DNA of 18,452 bases. It comes from a bacterium. Its GTDB lineage: Bacteria > SAR324 > NAC60-12. Under the pieces are notes generated by a model, which saw only the letters and a program-made list of their open reading frames with translations, was not told where the DNA came from and did not search any database. The DNA lies in NCBI GenBank assembly GCA_965233585.1, contig CBDDTI010000666.1:1-18452 (forward strand), written 5' to 3'. A program made the translations under genes and the position numbers. This document shows positions 660 to 17,378 of the stretch, piece after piece. Positions within the stretch are counted from its first letter, which is position 1; each line of letters opens with the position of its first letter.

Positions 660-1170
660 ATTGTGTGGATAAAGTTGTATCTACGTGACAAGTTGTGTGT
701 GTGGACAAGTTGTGTGTGGACAAGTTGTTAACAAGTTGTGTGATGACAAGTTGTGTGTGACCAGTTGTGTGTGGACCGAGTTGTAGCTGTGTGTGGACAA
801 GCTGTGTGTGGACAAGTTGTGTGTGGACAAGTTGTGTGTGAACAAGCTGTGTGTGGACAAGTGGTGTGTGGACAAGTTGTGTGTGTGTGTGAACAAGTTG
901 TGCGGTGGGAGGTTTGTGTGTGTGTGGACAAGTTGTATGTGGACAAGTTGTGTGTGGACAATTTGTGTGTGGACAAGTTGTGTGATGACAAGTTGATGAC
1001 AACTTGTGTGTGGACAAGTTGTGTGTTTCAGCAAGTTGTGTGATGGGAGGTTTGTGTGTGGACAAGTTGTGTGTGACAAGTTGTGTGTGTGGACAAGTTG
1101 TGTGATGACAAGTTGTGTGTTTGTGTGTGGACAAGTTTTGTGTGTGAGCAAGTTGTGTGATGGGAGGTTG
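660..1170. repeat. Minisatellite, ~15 bp unit TGTGTGGACAAGTTG (left block)
   Basis: Dozens of copies, with variants tgtgatgacaag, gtttcagcaag and gatgggaggtt. Confidence 0.95.
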
Positions 1171-1900
1171 CCGGGCCTGCCACGCAAAAGTGAAATTCGA
1201 TGCCACCGAGTGCCACGCATGCCACATGGAACCAAGGTGCATGTCGCCAAATGCCACGCCTGCCACGCCAACAGCCGCAGCGGCCCCGCGGCCCAGTCCG
1301 GCCCAAGCGCGCCATCGCAGCCAGCCCAGTGCCATACGTGCCACGCCTGCCACGCAAAAGTGGAAGTCGATGTCACCAAGTACCACGCCTGCCACGTGAA
1401 GCGAAGGTAGATGTCGATGTCACCGAGTGCCACGCCTGCCACATGGAACGAAGGTGCATGTCGCCAAATGCCACGCCTGCCACGCCAACAGCCGCAGCGG
1501 CCCCGCGTCCCAGTCCGGCCCAAGCGCGCCATCGCAGCCAGCCCAGTGCCATACGTGCCACGCCTGCCACGCAAAAGTGGAAGCCGATGTCACCAAGCAC
1601 CACGCCTGCCACATGAAGCGAAGGTAGATGTCGATGTCACCGACTGCCACGCCTGCCACGTGGAACCAAGGTGCATGTCGCCAAATGCCACGCCTGCCAC
1701 ACCAACAGCCGCAGCAGCCCCGCGTCCCAGTCCGGCCCAAGCGCGCCATCGCAGCCAGCCCAGTGCCATACGTGCCACGCCTGCCACGCAAAAGTGGAAG
1801 TCGATGTCACCAAGCACCACACCTGCCACATGAAGCGAAGGTAGATGTCGATGTCACCGACTGCCACGCCTGCCACGCAAAAGTGGAAGTCGATGTCACC
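1171..1900. repeat. GC-rich tandem repeat, 217 bp period, ~3.3 copies, built from ~40-45 bp subunits anchored on TGCCACGCCTGCCAC
   Basis: Near-identical ORFs are offset by 217 (1411 vs 1628; 1373 vs 1590), and the anchor motif recurs several times per unit. Confidence 0.95.
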
Positions 1901-2693
1901 AAGTTGTGTGTGGACAGGTTGTGTGCGGACAAGTTGTGTGATGACAAGATGTGTGTGGACAAGTTGTGTGTGGACAAGTTGTGTGTGGACAAGTTGTTAA
2001 CAAGTTGTGTGATGACAAGTTGTGTGTGACCAGTTGTGTGTGGACCGAGTTGTAGCTGTGTGTGGACTAGCTGTGTGTGGACAAGTTGTGTGTGGACAAG
2101 TTGTGTGTGAACAAGTTGTGTGATGACAAGGTGTGTGTAGACAAGTTGTGTGTGTGTGAACAAGTTGTGTGATGGGAGGTTTGTGTGTGGACAAGTTGTA
2201 TGTGGACAAGTTGTGTGTGTGTGGACAGCTGTGTGTGGACAAGTTGTGTGATGACAAGTTGGTGACAAGTTGTGTGTGGACAAATTGTGTGTGAACAAGT
2301 TGTGTGATGACAAGTTGTATGTGGACAATTTGTGTGTGGACAAGTTGTATGTGGACAAGTTGTGTGTGTGTGTGGACAGCTGTGTGTGGACAAGTTGTGT
2401 GTTTCAGCAAGTTGTGTGATGGAAGGTTTGTGTGTGGACAAGTTGTGTGTGGACAAGTTGTGTGTGGACAAGGTGTGTGTGTGAACAAGTTGTGTGATGA
2501 CAAGTTGTATGTGGACAATTTGTGTGTGGACAAGTTGTTAACAAGTTGTGTGTTTCAGCAAGTTGTGTGATGGGAGGTTTGTGTGTGGACAAGTTGTATG
2601 TGGACAAGTTGTGTGTGGACAAGGTGTGTGTGGACAAGTTGTGTGATGACAAGTTGTGTGTGGACAAGTTGTGTGTGTGTGTGATGGGAGGTT
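1901..2693. repeat. Minisatellite, ~15 bp unit TGTGTGGACAAGTTG (right block)
   Basis: Same unit and variants as 660-1170. Confidence 0.95.
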
Positions 2694-2764
2694 GGCGGCG
2701 GGAGGCGGCGGAGGCGGCGGGATACAGAACCAAAAACAAGAACCCCACACAAAGATGCAGGGAA

Positions 2765-3280
2765 AAAACACGATTTTGAAGCGGTTTTTAAAAGGGCTTT
2801 TAAAAGGAAAATTACCAGCGCCAAAATTGAGAAAATCCGCTGACAAATCACTGTCGCAGCCTTGATGCAGCCACTCCAATACTATTTACGGTGTCCAGCT
2901 GCAAAAGACAATAGTATTACGCATGCAGCCGCGGCATCAAGCAACTTTGACGCAGCCACTACAATGCGATCTGAAGAGACTGAGTTGCAAAACACAAGAG
3001 AACTACGCGCAACGGCGTCGGAAATTGCAGCTCCAAAACCGGATCTCGACGCCAACAAGAAAAAAAGAACGATTTTGAAGCACTTTGTAAAAAGAATTCA
3101 AAAGGAAAAATACTAGTGCCAAAATTGAGAAAATCTGCTGACAAATCAGTATCGGCTGCCTTGATGCAGCCGCTCCACTACGATTTACGATGCCCAGCTG
3201 CAAAAGAGAACAGTATTACGCATGCAGCCGCGGCGCCAAGCAACCTTGACGCAGCCATTACAATGCGTTTCGCAGCATCA
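2765..3280. repeat. Tandem duplication, ~298 bp period (~1.7 copies)
   Basis: acgattttgaagc at 2770 and 3069; ccaaaattgagaaaatc at 2821 and 3119; agtattacgcatgcagccgcggc in both copies. A further partial motif (gcagccatcacaatgcgtttcgcagcat) lies near 3566. Confidence 0.9.
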
Positions 3281-3710
3281 CGTCGCAAACCTGCACGTAT
3301 CTACGCACATAGCAACAGAGCATGACAACAATCATGGCGCCATTCCAATGCGATCTCCATCCGCAGATTCAAGAAACGCATAGAACTACGCACACAGGAA
3401 CAACCACTCGTTGCAGAACACAGAGGAGGAACCAAAACGACCCCAGCCGCACCCGCCGCACACACGAGGTACCTTTCATCGCCGGCCGCAGCCACTTTTC
3501 ACGGAAAAACACAAGCTTTCGTGCTCCGGCTTCCTCCCCAAAACAAAGCCCATGCAACATCCATGCAGCCATCACAATGCGTTTCGCAGCATTCCCTTCA
3601 TTACCATGCGCCTTACTGACCACGTCCCTTTGTCACCACTTCCCAAAGTCACCACTTCCCTTCGTCACCACCCTGTGTCATAACCTATTATTTTTTTGTG
3701 ATGTATTATT

Positions 3711-5463: not shown

Positions 5464-5648
5464 TTTAAATACTTAGAAATATGTTTGGTACATAGTATAT
5501 ATTTGCACCTTGTTTTCTAATTTAGTTTGAGTAGTATTTTTAATTTGCTGTAATTTTCTAGTGACTCCGGCTATACGCGCGGTTAAAAGCGAAGTTGTAA
5601 TGCACTGATTCTTGGAGGTGCAGAATTTGAAGGTGAAATTCGATGGGT
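5464..5648 (+). repeat. 5' LTR (eroded)
   Basis: Aligns to 13528-13745 at ~76% identity by hand with one ~33 bp indel. Shared blocks include ggtacatag, gtgactcc.gc.atacgcgcgg..aaaagcgaag and tgattcttggaggtgcagaa.ttgaag. Confidence 0.85.
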
Positions 5649-5659
5649 AAATTTTCTAG

Positions 5660-7700
5660 ATGAGCCTAATGCTCTGAGGAAGGCCAACGCTTTGAGAAAG
5701 CCCAGCACAACCAACGCTCTTAGGAAGCTCAACGGTGGTTTGAAACGTTGAAAAGTAGCCCTTTGGCATATTCACTAAAAGAAGGGTCACAGAAGCCGAA
5801 TTTCGACAAAATAAAAAACGAAATGAAGGAGGCGTAACAATGCTTAGAAGTTGAGCTTGCAAGTGGAATTGAGCCGCAGTTAAAAGATGGGAAAAAACCT
5901 GAGGCAGTAGAAGTCTATGAGTTACTTAGGGCTCCAAAAAGGGATGAACCGCTGGGAATTGAGGATGGGCCAAAAAATCCTGTTCCTGACCCGTCAGATC
6001 AGGGATTAGCTGCAAGGTCTTCAGACAAGCATACAAGGTCACCCGTCCGTCCTAAGTCGGAACCGAAAACACCAAGGAAAATTGAGGAAATACCATCAAA
6101 GCATTCTGAGGGAAATCTGCCAATGCAAACTCCTCAGATTGCTGGTGAATTTTCGAAATCGCTAGTGGTTGCTGTAACTGACGCTTCGGCCGTGAAGTCG
6201 GAAGCGAATATGCAGGGTGCTTTAAATGGATCTCAAAGTGCAGGAAACGTTTTTAAACGAACGCAACACGTTAATCAGACCGTGATTTCATCAATTCAAC
6301 CTTTGTTTGACGAGCAACAGCTGAGGCAGTTCTAGGAGATGTTCAATCAAGCTCCTTGACTGTATCCTGGTGCACAACAATTGATGATGCCATAATTAAC
6401 TATGCCCCCTCCAATTGCCAGATCACTATTCTTGGGACAAGATGAATGTAGGGTTCAAGGGTTTTTGCAAGTTGGGGAAATACCACAATTCGTTTTTCCT
6501 TATGGACAAAGGGAAGTCCAAAATCCTAGACTTCAAGAAATCCCTTTTCAATCTAGACTTAATTTAGAAATACTGATGGAAAGAAAATAGGGAACTTCGA
6601 GAACGCACTGATTCTTGGAAATTGGCTGCTATTAGCAGAACCGATCATAGCAGATCTTTCATTGATCGCCGTTGGATGGTGGAAAGATGTGGTCTGCGCT
6701 GCCGACACATGTCTCTCAGTTCATTGGATCGTATTATACATCCTGCGGAAGCGCCTCCGGCGTTGTGTCTGGAAAAATGGCAACAAGTGGAACGTCGAGT
6801 AGCATCTATGATCCTGCAGTTATTTTCTTTAGAGGTGAGAGACGAATTGGTACCTTTAAAACGATTATTAATTTTTGGAATCTTGACCTATTTGCTAGTT
6901 ACATACAGTCTAGGTGGAGTATTTGAGAGGCAGAATTTGTTGTGCAACCTAGAAGATCCCCCGGAGATCCAGAATGTCTTGGACGGCCCAATTGCCTTGA
7001 GACGGTGGCTCCTGTGGAGGACAAGAACGAAAGAAATTGGTGTAATTGCCCCTGACACAGCACTACAATTGAAAGGGTTGCTGAAGATGACCAAAAAAAA
7101 CCTTGGAAAGCCATCGAGAGTTGCAATTCTGGGTATCTTTGATAAGATTAGGATTGCAAGTGGACATAACACCAAGTGAAATCAATGCGGAGCAGTTTGC
7201 ATGCCACTTGCCGGCCGAGTTGGAACAACTTACCCTTACAAAAAAACGTCTTGGAATTCGAAATGATCCACAAAAGCCGAAATTTCAAGAAGCCGAGAAG
7301 CCGAAGATTTCTAAATTGATGAAATTAGAAGAAGAAGAAAAAGAAGAAGAAATAAAATCCCCTCCGAGAAAAAAGGAATTTAGGGAAGAGAAATCCAAAT
7401 GCAAGTTCTATTTGAGCGAATAAGGTTGCCGACGTGGAAAGCCTGCAACTGGTCGCGTGATCAAAAGTATGAATGCCGATGGTGTTGGAAGTGCGGAAGC
7501 CTTGAGCACATGGCTCCAGCTTGCACTCGTCTAAAAGAACGAGGTGATGCATCTCCAACGAATCCCGAAATTCGGAAGATTGAGCGGGAGGATTTATTAT
7601 TTACAAGCTCAAAGATAGAAGAAAACGAAGGTCAATCGAAGGCCCGTCTATGAAAGAATTGTTGGAGAAAACCAACACGTTGCTGAAATCTTTGACTACG
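5660..7700 (+). pseudogene. gag: gag-like region of the Copia polyprotein with CCCH zinc finger and CCHC zinc knuckle
   Basis: Helical gag-like fragment 6622-7179 (KWQQVERRVASMIL...ALRRWLLWRTR). CKFYLSE*GCRRGK/ACNWSR fits C-x8-C-x5-C-x3-H with H>R, a stop and a frameshift (~7400-7458). CWKCGSLEHMAPAC is a C-x2-C-x4-H-x4-C knuckle (~7483-7524). The start boundary is approximate. Confidence 0.75.
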
Positions 7701-7789
7701 ACCGCCGTATCCTCAAAGGCGACTGGGAGCACCACTGACTCCAGAAAACGTAGTGGAACGACTCCAGGGCCAATTGGATCAGCTGAAAT

Positions 7790-8110
7790 TCAAAATCTTT
7801 AAGATCAACCAAATTACCCATGTGAGTCTTCAGGGACTTGTAGGCTCTGGTGTAACATGCCCTCTACGACCCCGACGTCTTGGAAAAGGTAATGAAACCT
7901 ATAAGCGTGGTTCTATTATGCTAGCCAATTAAGAGACGATTTCATTGCAAGTGACCCCTGGCGGCATTATGGTGATTGAAAGAGCCGATGTCGAATCAAT
8001 ACTCCCTATGCGAAATTTGCTGGAAGAATGGTAATTTGAAAATCCTTTGTTTACACCGATGTCTATTACCAGTGCAAAACCATAAAGGATGTCTTTAATT
8101 ACCACGAGCT
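7790..8110 (+). pseudogene. Retropepsin-type aspartic protease remnant
   Basis: 7831-7869 translates QGLVGSGVTCPLR, matching the Copia LxDSGATH motif with D>G. It sits right after the zinc knuckle, as expected. Confidence 0.7.
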
Positions 8111-8326
8111 CGATCCTTGGACTTGAGCGAGGAAATGGAGGTGGTGGGAAGTCAAAGAATTATGAGAAGTGTGACGTTTGAGAAAGAGCAGAAGTGGATG
8201 GAGGAGTTGATCCAAAGCCACCCTGTTCCCCGTGAATTTCCACAACGAATTAAAGACCTACTTTTGGTCGATGTGGGCGATCGGAAAAATTTGCCACTCA
8301 ATCGACGCCAAAGAAAACGTCTTTAG

Positions 8327-9008
8327 CGTGATGGCTGCTTGGTATATCTATATGCTGGAGAAGATGATGGGTTTATCTTGTTAAGAGCTTTGAAGTAGCA
8401 AGGGGGAGATACCAATCACTTTTTCGAGATTGGCTTGAAACGTGGTAAGTCCTACAATATGCTAAACGATGTTGGAACATATTTTGGTCTCCTTTGCGCT
8501 GTTATGCATGGCAAGGTGGATGCCTTCATTGCCGGACCCAATTGCAGGACGAGATCGGTCCTCCGGCATTATCCAAAAGAAAATGCTCCGCGACCAATCC
8601 GAGCGTGGCATGGAGCTGAACATGGTCTTTCTGACCTAACACCTGTGGAACAACGATAATTGGATGAAGATCATGTCTTGATATGGCAATTCATCTTTCT
8701 ATAGATGGTTGCAACATATCTACGACAAGCACGAGAAATTCAAAAGCCTGTGAGGTTCCTGCTGGAACAATCTGCGTCGACTCGGCACTATGTGCCGGAA
8801 TATATATCCTTTTGGGATAAAAAGATGGAAGAAACTTAAGGAGGAGTTCAATTTTGAAGAAACTACCTTCTTACAAGATTGATACGGAGGTACTGTAACA
8901 AAGCCAACGACTATGGCTGACAACTTGATCCTCAACGTCGAAAGCCATCGAATACCTCGATGCAATGTCAATGAGATCAAATCATTATTTGAACTCTCAA
9001 AATGGGTA
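8327..9008 (+). pseudogene. C5 DNA cytosine-methyltransferase-like domain within the polyprotein (disrupted)
   Basis: Read-through translation gives ordered motifs: VYLYAG (motif I-like, 8342-8359), FEIGL (II-like, E at 8426), AFIAGPNCRTRS (IV, catalytic Cys, GPNC 8534-8545), FLLEQ (VI-like, LLEQ 8759-8770), and Q..YGG..TKPTT (VIII region, KPTT 8901-8912). It has four internal stops and one frameshift. Confidence 0.7.
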
Positions 9009-10223
9009 CTCCTAGTTGTGGAAGTCAAAGCGTTTCAATGAAATGTGCGTCCTAGGTGGGGGAGAAATTTCTGGAAGTCGGTGCGATGTTGCGTCCAGTT
9101 GGTGTTTAGCATGTGTGTGTTTTTTCCAATTGATGGTTTATCGTGAGTTTTTCATGGATACCATGCAGATAATTGTAGCTATTCCCTTGTGTTTTGGGAG
9201 TTTTAGCTTTGTAATAATGGAATTTGTACATCACTGAATGGTGTCCTGTTGTCCCGAATAATCAGATCACTAGACTTTCTTTCCCGAATTTGATGGCAGC
9301 TTTGGATGCTTGGGAAGTAAAATATTCAAAAAATGGGAAAGAATTGCGCTTGCGCATGAAGTTAGATGAGGCCATTGTTGAATATCAATCGCAAAAGGCT
9401 GCAAAGAAGCAAAAGGATCAGAAGGATGATGCAGTGGCGTCTATTCCCAGTCTTTGTTTGGCAATGAGACATGTTTTATTTCATTGCCTCCGGCAAGCCC
9501 GCCGGCCATAAAGAGGTGGCCCCAAGGGAGTTTGATGTGCATTCTAGGTGGAAGCCCGCGAGAGCGCAGAAGAGAAAAGGAGAAGAAGAAGAAAGGAAGA
9601 CGAAGACAAAGCCATAAAACGGAAGCGGCTCAAACAACCAGGAGTAGAGGAGTAGAGGAGTAGGCGTCAAGTAAGAGCAAAGAGAACAAAGGAATAAGTA
9701 CAATCCAAGAACCGAAACAAGAACAACACCTTCCAACAGGGGCTGCTGTTTGAGACATTTTGAACCTCGTTTGGACCTCGTTTGCACCTCGTCCGGACCT
9801 CGTTCGGAATCGCCCAACATTTGCCCGTACTAACTGTACATTCACTTAGCAACATTCGAATCCCGAAGTCTTCCACTCCTTATCAAATTCCTTCAGGAAA
9901 GCCACCAGAAACATTCCTTCAGATTATTATTCAGACATATTTGAGATTCATGTGTGGAGACGCGTCCTGATGGGGATTTAGAAAATTTGGCATATATTTT
10001 TAAGATTATGGGACATAATTGTGCACACGCGTCCTGATGGGGATTTGGAAAATTTGGCAATAGAAAAGTGCACTGCCAGGGATCTAAAAGTAACACTTCT
10101 ACATAGTGCGTCCCATGCAGTTTTAGACCTGGTTGCATTGACCTGTTTGACTTCCTGAATGCGCGGCGTCCCATGCAGTTTTTACCTTGGTTCCACATAT
10201 GCACTGACTTTCACGTCCCAGTG
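9009..10223. mobile_element. 1215 bp non-autonomous DNA-transposon-like insertion with TA (or GTAC) target duplication
   Basis: Flanks are tggGTAc (9003-9009) and gtGTACctgga (10221-10231). Excision restores the in-frame ELSKW-V-PGTMNMV. Degenerate TIRs are in register: ctcctagttGTGgAAGTCA vs reverse-complement cactgggacGTGaAAGTCA. Subterminal gcgtcc repeats are present. Confidence 0.8.
9763..9808. repeat. 11 bp tandem repeat (ACCTCGTTTGG) x4
   Basis: acctcgtttgg acctcgtttgc acctcgtccgg acctcgttcgg. Confidence 0.85.
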
Positions 10224-10225
10224 TA

Positions 10226-11300
10226 CCTGGAACTATGAATATGGTTACTGAAACCTTCCTCACCCAGATTGTTCTTTGCCAACCAAAGCTCGCGCCGCTG
10301 AGCTGGCAAAAACATCTATAATATGGTTATGTGCCTTTTCGTCGCGATTGTTTGGTATGCCAACAAAATTTTCAATAACAGCCACCCCATCGAAAAGTCA
10401 AACATCCTCTTGGTGGAGTCCTTTCAGTTGATATTGGTGGACCATTTGTCCGAGCCCATGATACTGGAGGCTAGAAAACCGCCTATATCCTTGTGGGAAC
10501 TTTCACGTGGATAGTCCCGAAGGGTTCACCTTTGAAGGAGGATGAAGTGGAGGATCCGGAAGAAGAAGCACCTAATTTTACAAATCGAAGATGAACTAGT
10601 TGAACACGAGCTAGTTTAAGGCGTTTTCGATGATCCTGAAGATGAAAATGAAAAATCTGAAGTTCAAAAGGTCCCAGAAGGCGAAATTGAAAGGAAAGAA
10701 GAAAAATCATTAAAGGAAAGGAAAGAAGGTGAGGAAGAAGAAAAGCCTGCAGAATTTGAGACTGGGGTTTTTCGACATGCCTCTTAGATGTGCTCTAAAA
10801 AGGCCAAGGAAGTGATAAGGGTGATCATGGATATGCTTCTTCGATTACGAGCGGATGGATTTCTTATAGGCCTTATATACAGTGACCAAGGGCATGAATT
10901 CCAAGGCCAGTTTAAAGTCTGGGGTCGTGAATGTGGAATTCACCTCACTAGAACCCCTGGTGATGACCCTCGATCGAATGTTCGTGCTGAATGTGCCGTG
11001 AAAACAATCAAATTATATTATACAGATCCGAGTTCTTTTGCAAGCTGAAACTCCTGGATCTTGGCGGCCCTGGGCAACAAGGTTTGTTAAGGGGTTCAAC
11101 CGCGCGGTTCGAATTGGAAAAAGGCCCGACTGGCCACCATTCCTCTCTACTACCATGGTCCGAAAACGGAAGCGGAATGGTGCCGTGGTGTTTTTGAAAT
11201 TTTTACGGAGGATGTTAAGTACCTTTGCCCGTCACCTGAAGACCATGGTCATTGGATCCTACCTGAAGATGAATGTCCTCGTATCACTAACCTCATCATG
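10226..11300 (+). pseudogene. Integrase remnant (HHCC finger + DDE core)
   Basis: WQKHL*YGYVPFRRDCLVCQ (10304-10363, second His decayed to Tyr), GVLSVDIGGPF (first D at 10430), IYSDQGHEF (second D at 10884), and TPGDDPRSNVRAE (E at 10989), giving D-x34-E. Confidence 0.9.
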
Positions 11301-11569
11301 AAATCTGCACAATTTCCAGGTGCTGAGGAAGGTTGGATTGCCTTGGAAAGAGAAGCAGCTGATGCAGTCATGGTGAGGCGAAGATTGCGCGGAAAGTCTA
11401 CGATCCGAAAGATGGAGGAGAAAGATCAGGTTGAGGATGAAGAGGAGGAAGAAAAGAAAAGAAGAATAAAGATTTTGAGAGTGATTGAAAAAGAGATGAG
11501 AAGAATGGTGGAGAATGATGTGGGGTTGGCCCTGGAAGAAGTGCGCGGTCATGCCAAACGAGGAGGAGG

Positions 11570-12520
11570 AAGTTTTGCAGACTAAAATCCTATCTTCCCG
11601 AGAAATAGCTGAAAATTGGGAGGAATGCCTTCCTGCCGCAACGAAGTTGAGTTCCTGCTGAACAAGAAAGAAGCTTTTCGTGAAATGTTCCCAGAAGAAT
11701 TTCGAAAATTTAAAGAAGATGCAGAAAAGAAAGGAAAGGAGATCGAATATATACCGTCCAAGCTAGTATTCACCAGAAAATCTTGCCTTGATGGAGGCAA
11801 AAAGAAAATACGGTGGGTTGCACGTGAAAATTTAGAACCCCGCCGTGAAGAAGACGATAATTTCAGTAGTGGAGCTGATGCTTCAGCTCTCTATATCTTG
11901 GTCTGGATAGCTGCCCGTGGCCAATGGTTCGCAATAACTCTTGATGGGAAAATAGCCTTTCTTAATGCCAAAATGGTCCAGTTAGAGGACGAAGATTTGC
12001 TGTTGGTGAAGCTTCCATACCTCATCATTGAAAAGAAATTTCTGCGAAAAGACGTCCTTTACAAGCCTGAGAAAGTCATCTACGGCTTCCGTCGATCTCC
12101 AAAATTTGGGGGTTTTGATTAGAGATGAAACTATCAATGGCTTTAACATTGAGGGGGAACATGAAGGGAGATCCATGAATTTTGTCCTCGAGCTTTTTTA
12201 ATCTGAACCAAATCTATGGAGTTTTCAAGATGCTGATGATGAAGATGACCTGACGGTCCCTGGGCTCTTGATAATTTATGTGGACGCATTCTTGGTTGCA
12301 GTGCCAAAACCTCTCGTGTTGGCCGTCCAGAACCAAATTCAATCAATTTGAATTTCAACAATTCCTGAACCAGTATCCAGTACTCTGGTACATTTCCTTG
12401 GGATGGAAATCTCCAAACTCTGCGACGCAGAGACCAAAAGAGATGTATGGATGCTGATATAACAAAGCTATACGCTTGACTTGGTCCAGAAGGAAAACGA
12501 AAATGCAAAGTTAAAGAAGG
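11570..12520 (+). pseudogene. Reverse transcriptase remnant, Copia/RVT_2 type, truncated at the 3' end
   Basis: IPSKLVFTRK, KKIRWVAREN, LDGKIAFLNA, KVIYGFRRSPK, SEPNLW (~12202), GLLIIYVDAFLV (YVDD>YVDA at 12277-12288), FLGMEI (~12395) and QSYTLDL. Confidence 0.92.
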
Positions 12521-12540
12521 ACGACCGGTTGGTTAACAAA

Positions 12541-13423
12541 AAGTTGAAAAAAAATGCGCAAATAACGCATGTGTTGTAGCTTATTACTTTAATTGTAATT
12601 CTTTCTCTTTCAAAAGCGGAAAAAGGAGAAATAATTGATGCGGATACATCATTTTCTTTTCAGATTATCGTGATTTATACCCTATTGGTTATCTTTCTTA
12701 TTCTGGTGGCACAGCATTTATTGGATGTTGCAATACGGGGAGCCGAATTTGTCATACGACAGTATGTTTTTCGGGCTCATCCTGGAAATTACGCCGAAGA
12801 TGCTGTGGAGGAAAATGAGCCATCTCGACGAGATTGACTTGAATTTTCGATGGAAGAAAATCCCACTGCCACGTGAGGTGAAGATTCAGAACATGTCAAT
12901 TCGTAATTAATTCAATATGATGCACCGAGATCAAATCGGAATATTCCGCAACCAGATCCAGAACCAGAAAAACCAACAAGTTCACAATCTACTGACCTCA
13001 CAAATGTATTGGCTGCTTTGCGAGTATATGATACATCGATGCCAGATTATGAAGCCGGATGGAAAGAAATCGACCAGGAAGAGGACTTGGTGCGAGAGGA
13101 GCTCACTTTAAGCTCTTCCAGGCAATCCTCGTCTGGGACCTCTTTAATATCAAACTCTGCAATGCAGAGCTCCTACACCTGCATTACCAGAACTTCCACT
13201 TAAGGTGATCATTACGCGCTATGGAACGGTATATTATACGCGATATAACTGCCATTTTCTGATTGCGCCAACAACTGGACCAACAACGTGTTATGGATGG
13301 TACTATCAGTGCCATGATGAATTAGCACAGGCTGGAAGAATTCCTGGGCCTGGCACTATAATATTTTTGGCGGATCTACATTTATATGCCCATATCGATG
13401 TGGCTTGCAGCAGTGCTGATTGA
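12541..13423 (+). pseudogene. C-terminal extension of the polyprotein: hydrophobic segments, acidic linker, putative Cys/His finger
   Basis: VL*LITLIVILSLSKA, then FQIIVIYTLLVIFLILVAQHLL (12658-12723), an acidic/Pro-rich stretch, and VIITRYGTVYYTRYNCHFL...C...CH...H...C (13205-13423). Confidence 0.5.
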
Positions 13424-13517
13424 GCCCGTAATTTTTCAATTTATACATCATGCTTAGATGGTACATAGGGTAGCTTGAGCTGGAATTATAAAGATTGAAG
13501 CTCCTTTCGAAAGCTTT

Positions 13518-13527
13518 AAAGGGGGAA
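13518..13527 (+). promoter_or_regulatory. Polypurine tract (plus-strand primer site)
   Basis: aaagggggaa lies immediately before the TG (13528) where homology to the 5' LTR begins. Confidence 0.75.
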
Positions 13528-13745
13528 TGCAAGTATCCAGATATATTGCTGGTACATAGCATGTATTGAAACCCTGCTTTCCAATTTAGATGGAGTAAGA
13601 TTCTCAATCTGCTGCGATTCTGTAATTATTTTTTTTGTTTCAAGACTCAACCTGGCTGTGACTCCAGCCATACGCGCGGCCAAAAGCGAAGCTGCCCTGC
13701 GTTGATTCTTGGAGGTGCAGAACTTGAAGATAAAGATCGGTGGGT
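13528..13745 (+). repeat. 3' LTR
   Basis: Starts with TG after the PPT and is homologous to 5464-5648. No clear terminal CA, so the right boundary is approximate. Confidence 0.85.
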
Positions 13746-16980: not shown

Positions 16981-17378
16981 TGATGCAGTTTTGATGGAGG
17001 TTCCATGGAGGATACATGGAGGTTTGATGTAGGTTTTATGGAGATTTTGAAGGCCCCTGTATCTACACTCGCTGGTTCTCTCATGCAGTCTGACTGGTGC
17101 AGGTTTGATGGAGGTTCCATGGATGATACATGGAGGTTTGATGTAGGTTTCATGGGGGTTTTGAAGGCCCCTGTATCTACACTTGCTGGTTCTCTCATGT
17201 AGTGTAATTGATGGAGTTTTGACGGAGGATACATGGAGGATTGATGTGGGTTTCATTGAGGTTTTGAAGGCCCCTGTATCTACACTTGCTGGTTCTCTCA
17301 TGCAGTCTAACTGATGGAATTTTGATGGAGGTTCCATGGAGGATACATGGAGGTTTGATGTAGGTTTCATGGATGTTT
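16981..17378. repeat. Tandem repeat, ~114 bp unit, ~3.5 copies
   Basis: aggcccctgtatctacact at 17051, 17165 and 17268 (periods 114 and 103), with gatggaggttccatgga.gatacatggaggtttgatgtaggttt repeated. Confidence 0.92.

Follow-up and report, generated by a model that had tools for sequence, protein, structure and literature searches.

An 18,452-nucleotide contig of an assembly filed as bacterial (GCA_965233585.1, CBDDTI010000666.1; hereafter the window) carries the remains of a long terminal repeat (LTR) retrotransposon. It is a long-dead, insert-disrupted copy of a dinoflagellate Ty1/Copia family whose Pol polyprotein contains an extra unit of about 330 residues between protease and integrase: some 80–110 residues of helices, followed by a core of about 250 residues. 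Purifying selection acts on this core about as strongly as on integrase and reverse transcriptase (RT). Structure prediction makes it very likely that the core adopts the fold of the C5 DNA methyltransferases (DNMTs). The explanation favored here is that intact copies encode a working enzyme, dependent on S-adenosylmethionine (SAM), that would modify the element's own cDNA through an invariant cysteine; to this explanation as a whole, which draws on predicted structures and residue conservation, we assign a probability of about 0.5.

An earlier note on this DNA, made from the letters alone, had described a cytosine methyltransferase-like domain on the basis of short strings recovered by reading through stop codons. 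Such strings could have arisen by chance if only decayed, non-coding spacer separated protease from integrase: the window copy is rich in stops, and Pfam is silent on its fragments. (Pfam was run on 25 fragments of the window that are free of stops, and its matches were confined to RVT_2 and weak zinc knuckles: nothing for the domain, and no PF00145.) The probability of that reading is nevertheless close to nil, being refuted by database relatives at E 7e-108, by intact open reading frames (ORFs) elsewhere, by the 2730 clusters described next, and by ratios of nonsynonymous to synonymous substitution (dN/dS) of 0.09–0.18.

The read-through peptide, with stops written as X, matches 25 database proteins at E values from 6.7e-108 to 2.9e-23, many of them polyproteins of more than 1400 residues. 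A profile was built from 20 natural domain sequences of the lineage closest to the window, in which asparagine precedes the invariant cysteine (alignment A1). Searched against 1.84 billion representatives, it retrieves 2730 clusters at E≤1e-3, 1107 at ≤1e-10, and 289 at ≤1e-30, with full-length matches at about residues 800–1300 of proteins 2400–2900 residues long. Many of the carriers are polyproteins of 2000–2900 residues with a Copia RT: RVT_2 was found in 12 of 12 long representatives scanned (one of them under the Pfam cut-off) and in all three intact metagenomic ORFs. Among named members the source species are Cladocopium goreaui, Fugacium kawagutii, and Symbiodinium natans. In metagenome contigs 49 loci were located; the match lies in a single open frame at 25 of them and is full-length in 21 of those 25, and the intact ORFs reach 2601 residues.

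Selection on the core was estimated by the Nei-Gojobori method, over about 250 residues, for pairs among the 21 full-length copies that are 60–99.5% identical (n=14). Five pairs have unsaturated dS, and yield dN/dS values of 0.088, 0.088, 0.138, 0.150, and 0.184 (two of the pairs share near-identical copies); the other nine have dN of 0.20–0.35 and saturated dS. Comparison of long ORFs in 100-residue windows (four pairs) gives the core dN values similar to those of integrase and RT. These dN/dS estimates indicate purifying selection on the core.

The fold assignment comes from two AlphaFold2 models, made without templates and from separate alignments: model 1 represents the Asn-Cys lineage (predicted local distance difference test score 83.9, predicted template-modeling score 0.85), and model 2 a distant Pro-Pro-Cys lineage (86.9 and 0.83). 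Compared by Foldseek with the Protein Data Bank (PDB), both models find nothing but C5 DNA methyltransferases among the matches listed at ranks 1–50, with best E values of 5.6e-4 (model 1) and 1.3e-4 (model 2). VIA-align, run independently of Foldseek with each model against 48,161 PDB representatives, gives the same family at ranks 1–15 for model 1 and 1–19 for model 2. The top match for model 1 is DNMT3B (Z 11.3; root-mean-square deviation, rmsd, 3.5; 195 residues aligned; model residues 80–328), followed among others by DNMT3A (11.2), DIM-2 (10.4), M.HhaI (9.3), and MET1 (9.1); for model 2 it is DNMT3A (Z 10.8, model residues 112–361). Thus both programs place C5 DNA methyltransferases first for both models, in agreement with the fold that the earlier note had read from the motifs. 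Among predicted viral structures in BFVD, nearly all named matches likewise are cytosine methyltransferases.

The motif loops also fall at the corresponding places in the models. By DSSP, LYAG follows strand 1, ExD ends strand 2, GPNC follows strand 4, and LEQP ends strand 5. As in DNMT3A, DNMT3B, and other proteins of the fold (M.HhaI, DNMT1, DIM-2, MET1, and Dnmt2), the predicted order of strands and motif loops is retained: the cysteine comes after strand 4, the glutamate ends strand 5, and a C-terminal helix, which lies inside the matched range of model 1, returns to the Rossmann core. The cysteine lies about 72 residues from the start of the aligned range, near the offset in DNMT3A and DNMT3B, which we take to be about 78.

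At the level of sequence, the signal is weak and appears limited to the catalytic loop. hhalign was used to compare profiles with bacterial Dcm genes, first with nine that PF00145 had retrieved from related genomes and then with a 58-sequence Dcm alignment. Against the nine, alignment A1 reaches a probability of only 0.7%, and lines up LYAG with FsGxG, as well as ExD and the cysteine; a profile of 81 sequences matches motif IV with P 0.0043; and the 13 sequences of the GGPPC subgroup (alignment A3) place GGPPC..S on PC..FS over 26 columns, with E 6.2e-5 and a probability of 65%. Against the enlarged Dcm alignment the P values are 0.0041, 0.037, 0.15, and 0.4, so enlargement was no help, and a forced global hhalign alignment with Dcm found nothing. 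Searched against PDB sequences, A3 returns 11 non-significant matches (E 0.46–1.2), seven of which are DNMT1- or ZMET2-type and lie at or just before motif IV. In the ESM Atlas the nearest clusters are unnamed; PF00145 is the first Pfam name to appear, but its score of 0.83 is weak and serves as a lead only. Two other candidates were set aside: a Methyltransf_23 match in one of 20 relatives (E 0.089), treated as noise; and annexins retrieved by A1 from PDB sequences (E at least 0.03), judged to be chance.

Conservation of the key residues was counted in the 61 core-covering sequences among the 150 best representatives, numbered after the first sequence of A1. The cysteine of GP(N/P)C (Cys152) and the serine four residues later are present in every one, as are the aspartate just after strand 2, Gln263, Trp306, and Lys272, which begins an invariant Lys-Pro-Thr. 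Glu226 of LEQP is kept in 59 of 61, and Gly90 of (Y/F)(A/S)G in 59 of 60, with a second glycine four residues further on. The Cys loop is the most conserved stretch of the entire unit in A1. The two motifs on which the earlier note had staked its reading, GPNC and LEQ, therefore are conserved in their cysteine and glutamate.

Two points qualify the earlier motif assignment. Motif IV had been described as divergent, PNC instead of PPC; this is true of the window and of 40/61 representatives, but the residue before the cysteine is proline in 19/61, so that about one third of the family carries GGPPC, the canonical motif IV of eukaryotic DNMTs. For motif II, the ExD string does stand at the end of strand 2, although the residue in question is probably the invariant aspartate two positions after the glutamate, which is glycine in the window. 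A midpoint-rooted tree of 81 domains, built without an outgroup, separates a deep all-Pro clade from a large Asn clade within which a Pro subclade is nested.

Several observations weigh against an active methyltransferase and, in part, against the fold itself. No sequence method places the domain in PF00145: the search proposed earlier was negative in four sets of relatives, even at lenient E (0/16, 0/20, 0/12, and 0/3 proteins). As every member tried is negative, the domain is better described as having a C5-methyltransferase fold than as a recognizable member of PF00145. Profile searches of PDB sequences with A1 and A3 likewise gave no significant match, and the hhalign results are unstable and never extend beyond motif IV or motifs I–II. 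Foldseek template-modeling (TM) scores are modest at 0.30–0.39, with rmsd of 5.6–12 Å, and the VIA-align margin over generic Rossmann proteins is about 3 Z units. The active site is altered: Asn-Cys replaces an otherwise universal Pro-Cys in the window's lineage; EQP stands for ENV (Glu226 is followed by Gln in 49 and His in nine of the 61, then by Pro in 60, and not by Asn-Val); and Q...KPT stands for QxRxR of motif VIII, with no RxR among the 61 representatives. The glycine loop reads (Y/F)(A/S)G...G rather than FxGxG, and is not common to the LINE-type relatives described below, which lack the second glycine. Finally, the position of the target-recognition region is occupied in both models by a loop of some 20–30 residues, predicted with lower confidence; so small a region leaves DNA recognition unexplained.

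Some of these observations would fit a conserved domain unrelated to methyltransferases: either a generic, nucleotide-binding domain of Rossmann-like type or an AlphaFold mis-assignment, with the motif resemblance a coincidence. No methyltransferase family is matched significantly in sequence; the first other family in the structural ranking, a short-chain dehydrogenase, follows close behind (Z 7.8 for model 1 and 7.2 for model 2); best Z values of 7–8 are common for models that have no true match; and the alignments behind the models are shallow (20 and 13 sequences). However, the ranking is the same for two models from different alignments: C5-methyltransferase chains fill the first 15 and the first 19 places, respectively, and Foldseek agrees independently in both PDB and BFVD. 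The structural match spans the whole core, including the returning C-terminal helix, and where profiles match locally at all, it is exactly at the catalytic PC motif. GGPPC in 19 of the 61 members and the PF00145-named ESM Atlas cluster, weak as its score is, point the same way. An unrelated domain thus seems improbable.

A homologous domain occurs in a second type of element. Searching the window's own assembly with A1 gave a weak match (E 3.4e-9) on another contig, C466, where positions 1030–3354 form an open frame of 774 residues; this encodes a C2H2 zinc finger and, at the C-terminus, a domain containing LHMFSG, TGPPCETWT, MEHPAIP, and KPTIL. This version has 111 relatives. The 26 that were scanned (those with names or precomputed domains, plus the weakest matches) include nine with RVT_1, one with Exo_endo_phos, and three with RNase H; PF00145 was found in none of the 26. 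By hhalign, the C466-type and Copia domains match at a probability of 99.9%, with E values of 5.5e-34 and 1.6e-36 over about 230 columns. Hence the same hidden domain family is present also in elements resembling long interspersed nuclear elements (LINEs), where it lies downstream of RT in single ORFs. This placement differs from that of SymbioLINE-Dnmt, as far as its layout is given in the available part of the published description (PMC5890265).

The mechanism envisaged for the Copia domain is hypothetical. SAM would be held by the (Y/F)xG loop and the strand-2 aspartate. The invariant cysteine of GP(N/P)C, at the motif IV position, would attack C6 of a pyrimidine, assisted by the glutamate of LE(Q/H)P (motif VI position) and the lysine of KPT (motif VIII position). 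Some 20 residues separate the domain from the integrase zinc finger downstream of it; given this proximity, the domain probably remains joined to integrase or, failing that, shares its particle. New cDNA could then be modified before or during integration, in the particle or the pre-integration complex, and the modified copies would come to resemble a heavily CG-methylated host genome. That the domain is an active enzyme acting on the element's own nucleic acid is, on the modeled structures and conserved residues, about an even bet.

A C5-methyltransferase fold need not imply DNA methylation, and a somewhat unlikely alternative takes two forms. In one the domain would be an adaptor or pseudo-enzyme, comparable to DNMT3L, that lengthens the integrase N-terminus and anchors the pre-integration complex on chromatin or on host DNMTs; its position directly upstream of the integrase zinc finger would suit this role. 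In the other it would be an enzyme with a different substrate, such as RNA or the primer tRNA (Dnmt2, for one, acts on tRNA), or a different chemistry, transferring a group other than methyl. The Asn-Cys of 40/61 representatives, the loss of ENV and RxR, and the nearly absent target-recognition region all are consistent with such a departure, and the structural matches include DNMT3L, Dnmt2, and a C5-carboxymethyltransferase (Z 7.8–8.6). Moreover, the 2018 study reports that SymbioLINE-Dnmt gave no DNA methylation in yeast, and proposes RNA as the target (PMC5890265). On the other side, the cysteine, glutamate, lysine, glutamine, and strand-2 aspartate are invariant or nearly so across lineages down to about 35% identity; LINE-type relatives retain PPC, EHP, and KPT; and the Cys loop is more conserved than any other stretch of the unit. 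Known pseudo-enzymes such as DNMT3L lack the catalytic residues.

Capture of DNMTs by retrotransposons is a recent and rare observation. In the portion of their paper available here, de Mendoza et al. (2018) describe DNMTs, found through PF00145, in SymbioLINE-Dnmt, SymbioDIRS-Dnmt3, and KnitGypsy-Dnmt3 (Klebsormidium), where they sit in LINE ORF1, DIRS Pol, or Gypsy Pol, respectively (PMC5890265). In the same text, Copia elements, the most abundant retrotransposons of Symbiodinium, are said to lack "any DNMT domain"; retrotransposon DNMTs are reported to methylate CG de novo, methylation of cDNA is proposed, and almost all CGs of the host genome are methylated (PMC5890265). Modification of cDNA by the Copia domain would fit such a host. 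To judge from that account, the Copia domain shares with the SymbioLINE and SymbioDIRS DNMTs a Symbiodiniaceae host, a retrotransposon-borne domain of C5-methyltransferase type, purifying selection, and possible methylation of cDNA. It differs from the published fusions in being invisible to PF00145, in lying between protease and integrase, and in its altered catalytic motifs.

Compared with C5-methyltransferases in general, the Copia domain has extra N-terminal helices, altered motifs and glycine loop, no PF00145 match, and a location inside a Copia polyprotein. DNMT3 also has a small target-recognition region; in the Copia domain this region is almost absent. Short viral proteins offer another comparison: the best viral structural match is the unnamed, 210-residue BFVD entry A0A0A0RJX0 (E 1e-5, TM by target 0.72), and a putative cytosine DNA methyltransferase of Tetraselmis virus 1 (A0A2P0VN45, 218 residues) matches with E 3.6e-4 and TM by target 0.57. 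These proteins are about the size of a core devoid of a target-recognition domain, but they stand alone and are 15–19% identical to the Copia domain. The structural comparison hints that short algal-virus methyltransferases of this kind, lacking such a domain, may be its nearest relatives.

Other reports concern the host element. The Ty1-copia element SmTCL of Chen et al. (2017) is described, in the accessible part of the paper, with RT, integrase, RNase H, and LTRs, and no extra domain is mentioned there (PMC5776459). By that description alone, it resembles the present family in its LTRs, its Copia-group RT, and an integrase upstream of RT and RNase H. Arthropod Copia elements have captured a methyl-CpG-binding domain, in the available excerpt of that study (PMC6673714); this too is a host-type DNA-methylation module in Copia, but a reader domain in another host group. 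A 2025 paper, as far as its available text goes, speaks of DNMT3 embedded in "LTR Copia and DIRS", citing the 2018 work; those DNMT3s are PF00145-type (PMC12344493). (The cited 2018 paper, in the portion available, describes Gypsy and DIRS elements and says that Copia is without DNMT.) A published description of the Copia domain was not found in full-text literature, including a 2024 review, a scope that did not extend to supplements and subscription journals. The Copia domain is a highly divergent, retrotransposon-borne domain of C5-methyltransferase type, and is new in this form.

Together, the Copia and LINE-like elements are indicated to carry a large, selected family with the C5-methyltransferase fold (2730 clusters) that PF00145 surveys do not see. 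Both the count and the range of methyltransferase-like genes borne by dinoflagellate transposons would change accordingly. The family supplies a testable candidate for cDNA self-methylation in an LTR element, fused beside integrase, as well as a natural set of active-site variants of the fold. A broader generalization is unlikely, in our estimate, to hold in full: that Symbiodiniaceae Copia elements, the most abundant retrotransposons there, and the LINE-like group all encode an active, Pfam-invisible clade that modifies its own cDNA or the target site. Were it true, transposon-borne enzymes would contribute substantially to the near-complete CG methylation of Symbiodiniaceae genomes, and the altered site (Asn-Cys, Glu-Gln-Pro, Lys-Pro-Thr, and almost no target-recognition domain) could mean a new specificity or chemistry.

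In the window, the parts of the element were mapped by tblastn with intact relatives (P0003, P0005, and P0008; Table 1). The decayed element spans about 5486–13745; in the region of the extra unit it is interrupted by in-frame stops, a single frameshift, and an insert of 1217 bp. Its Pol order (protease, integrase, RT) and a weak Gag zinc knuckle upstream were established by tblastn and Pfam, and LTR-like repeats flank the element. The RVT_2 match, at 31.1 bits, is slightly below the 31.6 cut-off, which relatives exceed. Relatives have CCCH and CCHC knuckles at the corresponding place in Pfam scans, and their sequences contain a DSGATH-type protease site. The RVT_2 match and the domain order bear out the Copia assignment of the earlier note. 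The LTR-like repeats are now only 77–82% identical, so the insertion must be old.

Table 1. Parts of the decayed Copia element, in window coordinates
Feature	Position	Strand	Basis
5' LTR-like remnant	5486..5648	+	direct repeat with 13550-13745, 77-82% identical
Gag-like region, degraded, over three frames	5814..7441	+	tblastn, P0005 residues 56-732
CCHC zinc knuckle	7483..7527	+	Pfam zf-CCHC, E 0.0019, under family cut-off
Aspartic protease region, degraded	7510..8028	+	tblastn, P0003 residues 1-178, P0005 residues 732-927
Helical N-terminal part of inserted unit, conserved	8009..8323	+	tblastn; helical in both models
Predicted C5-methyltransferase-fold core; in-frame stops, frameshift near 8820, TGA	8327..9008	+	tblastn, motifs, models
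Nested insert, about 1.2 kb, GTAC at both flanks	9010..10222	.	break in tblastn collinearity; junction bases
C-terminal helix of domain (VPGTMNMV...) and linker to integrase	10223..10318	+	tblastn, motif location
Integrase N-terminal zinc-finger region	10322..10579	+	tblastn, P0005 residues 1266-1383; CxxC located
Integrase core region	10581..11414	+	tblastn, P0005 residues 1397-1674; weak Pfam rve in relatives
Copia-type reverse transcriptase, frameshifted	11613..12489	+	Pfam RVT_2 E 2.3e-7; tblastn, P0008
3' LTR-like remnant	13550..13745	+	direct repeat with 5486-5648

All six motif strings quoted in the earlier note were located in the window where it had placed them. One frame contains LYAG (8348–8359), EIGL (8426–8437), AGPNCRTRS (8531–8557), and LLEQ (8759–8770); KPTT (8901–8912) and LSKW (8994–9005) are in the next, which places one frameshift near 8820. 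The first frame is interrupted by TAG, TAG, TAA, and TAG between 8099 and 8836, and the second carries a TGA within the domain region. The core does occupy the segment to which the earlier note had assigned the whole domain, but the conserved unit is larger, extending from about 8009 or 8099 to about 10318. A basic NRRQRKRL motif (8300–8323) closes the helical N-terminal part. In the structure search, these 80–110 N-terminal residues partly align to regions that precede the catalytic domain in DNMT1, DIM-2, and MET1.

The insert interrupts the domain just before its C-terminal helix. In tblastn with the intact P0005, residue 1265 ends at 9008 and residue 1266 restarts at 10226. The junction bases are ...AAA TGG GTA C at 9000–9009 and GTA CCT GGA at 10223–10231; taking out 1217 bases flanked by GTAC restores K-W-V-P-G in frame. 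As had been claimed, LSKW-V then joins PGTMNMV..., and the frame continues to the integrase zinc finger (YGYVPFRRDCLVCQQ, 10322–10366; CxxC motif). No recognizable coding content was found in the insert itself, which has internal short repeats only. The window copy retains 30 of the 38 residues invariant in A1, having lost eight: I13S, H86Y, D115G, D195H, R200Q, P231T, S300L, and R305K. The domain of this particular copy is non-functional, and the element is dead, as the earlier note had concluded.

The window is an entire contig (C666) of a 12.0-Mb, 747-contig assembly filed as prokaryote, and is un-bacterial in look: tandem repeats are long and long open frames few. Both C666 and C466 have the appearance of dinoflagellate DNA; eukaryotic contigs therefore probably make up several Mb of the bin and escape marker-based estimates of contamination. 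A "bacterial" assembly is thereby shown to include eukaryotic contigs. The stated contamination of this assembly is 2.09%, and the 40 related genomes listed span 1.6–9.7 Mb. Dense tandem repeats flank the element (9–346, 696–1159, 1197–1876, 1900–2677, and 16984–17378); among them are a unit of 217 bp (3.1 copies, 96% matches), which lies within a 15-bp TGTGTGTGGACAAGT-type array, and another of 114 bp (3.6 copies).

The polyproteins P0008, P0009, and P0016 run past RNase H, with a hydrophobic stretch and a Cys/His-rich tail (Y-H...C...C..C). This extension looks like a second extra module in the polyproteins of the family. A remnant of the extension is present in the window at 13148–13420, directly before the 3' LTR.

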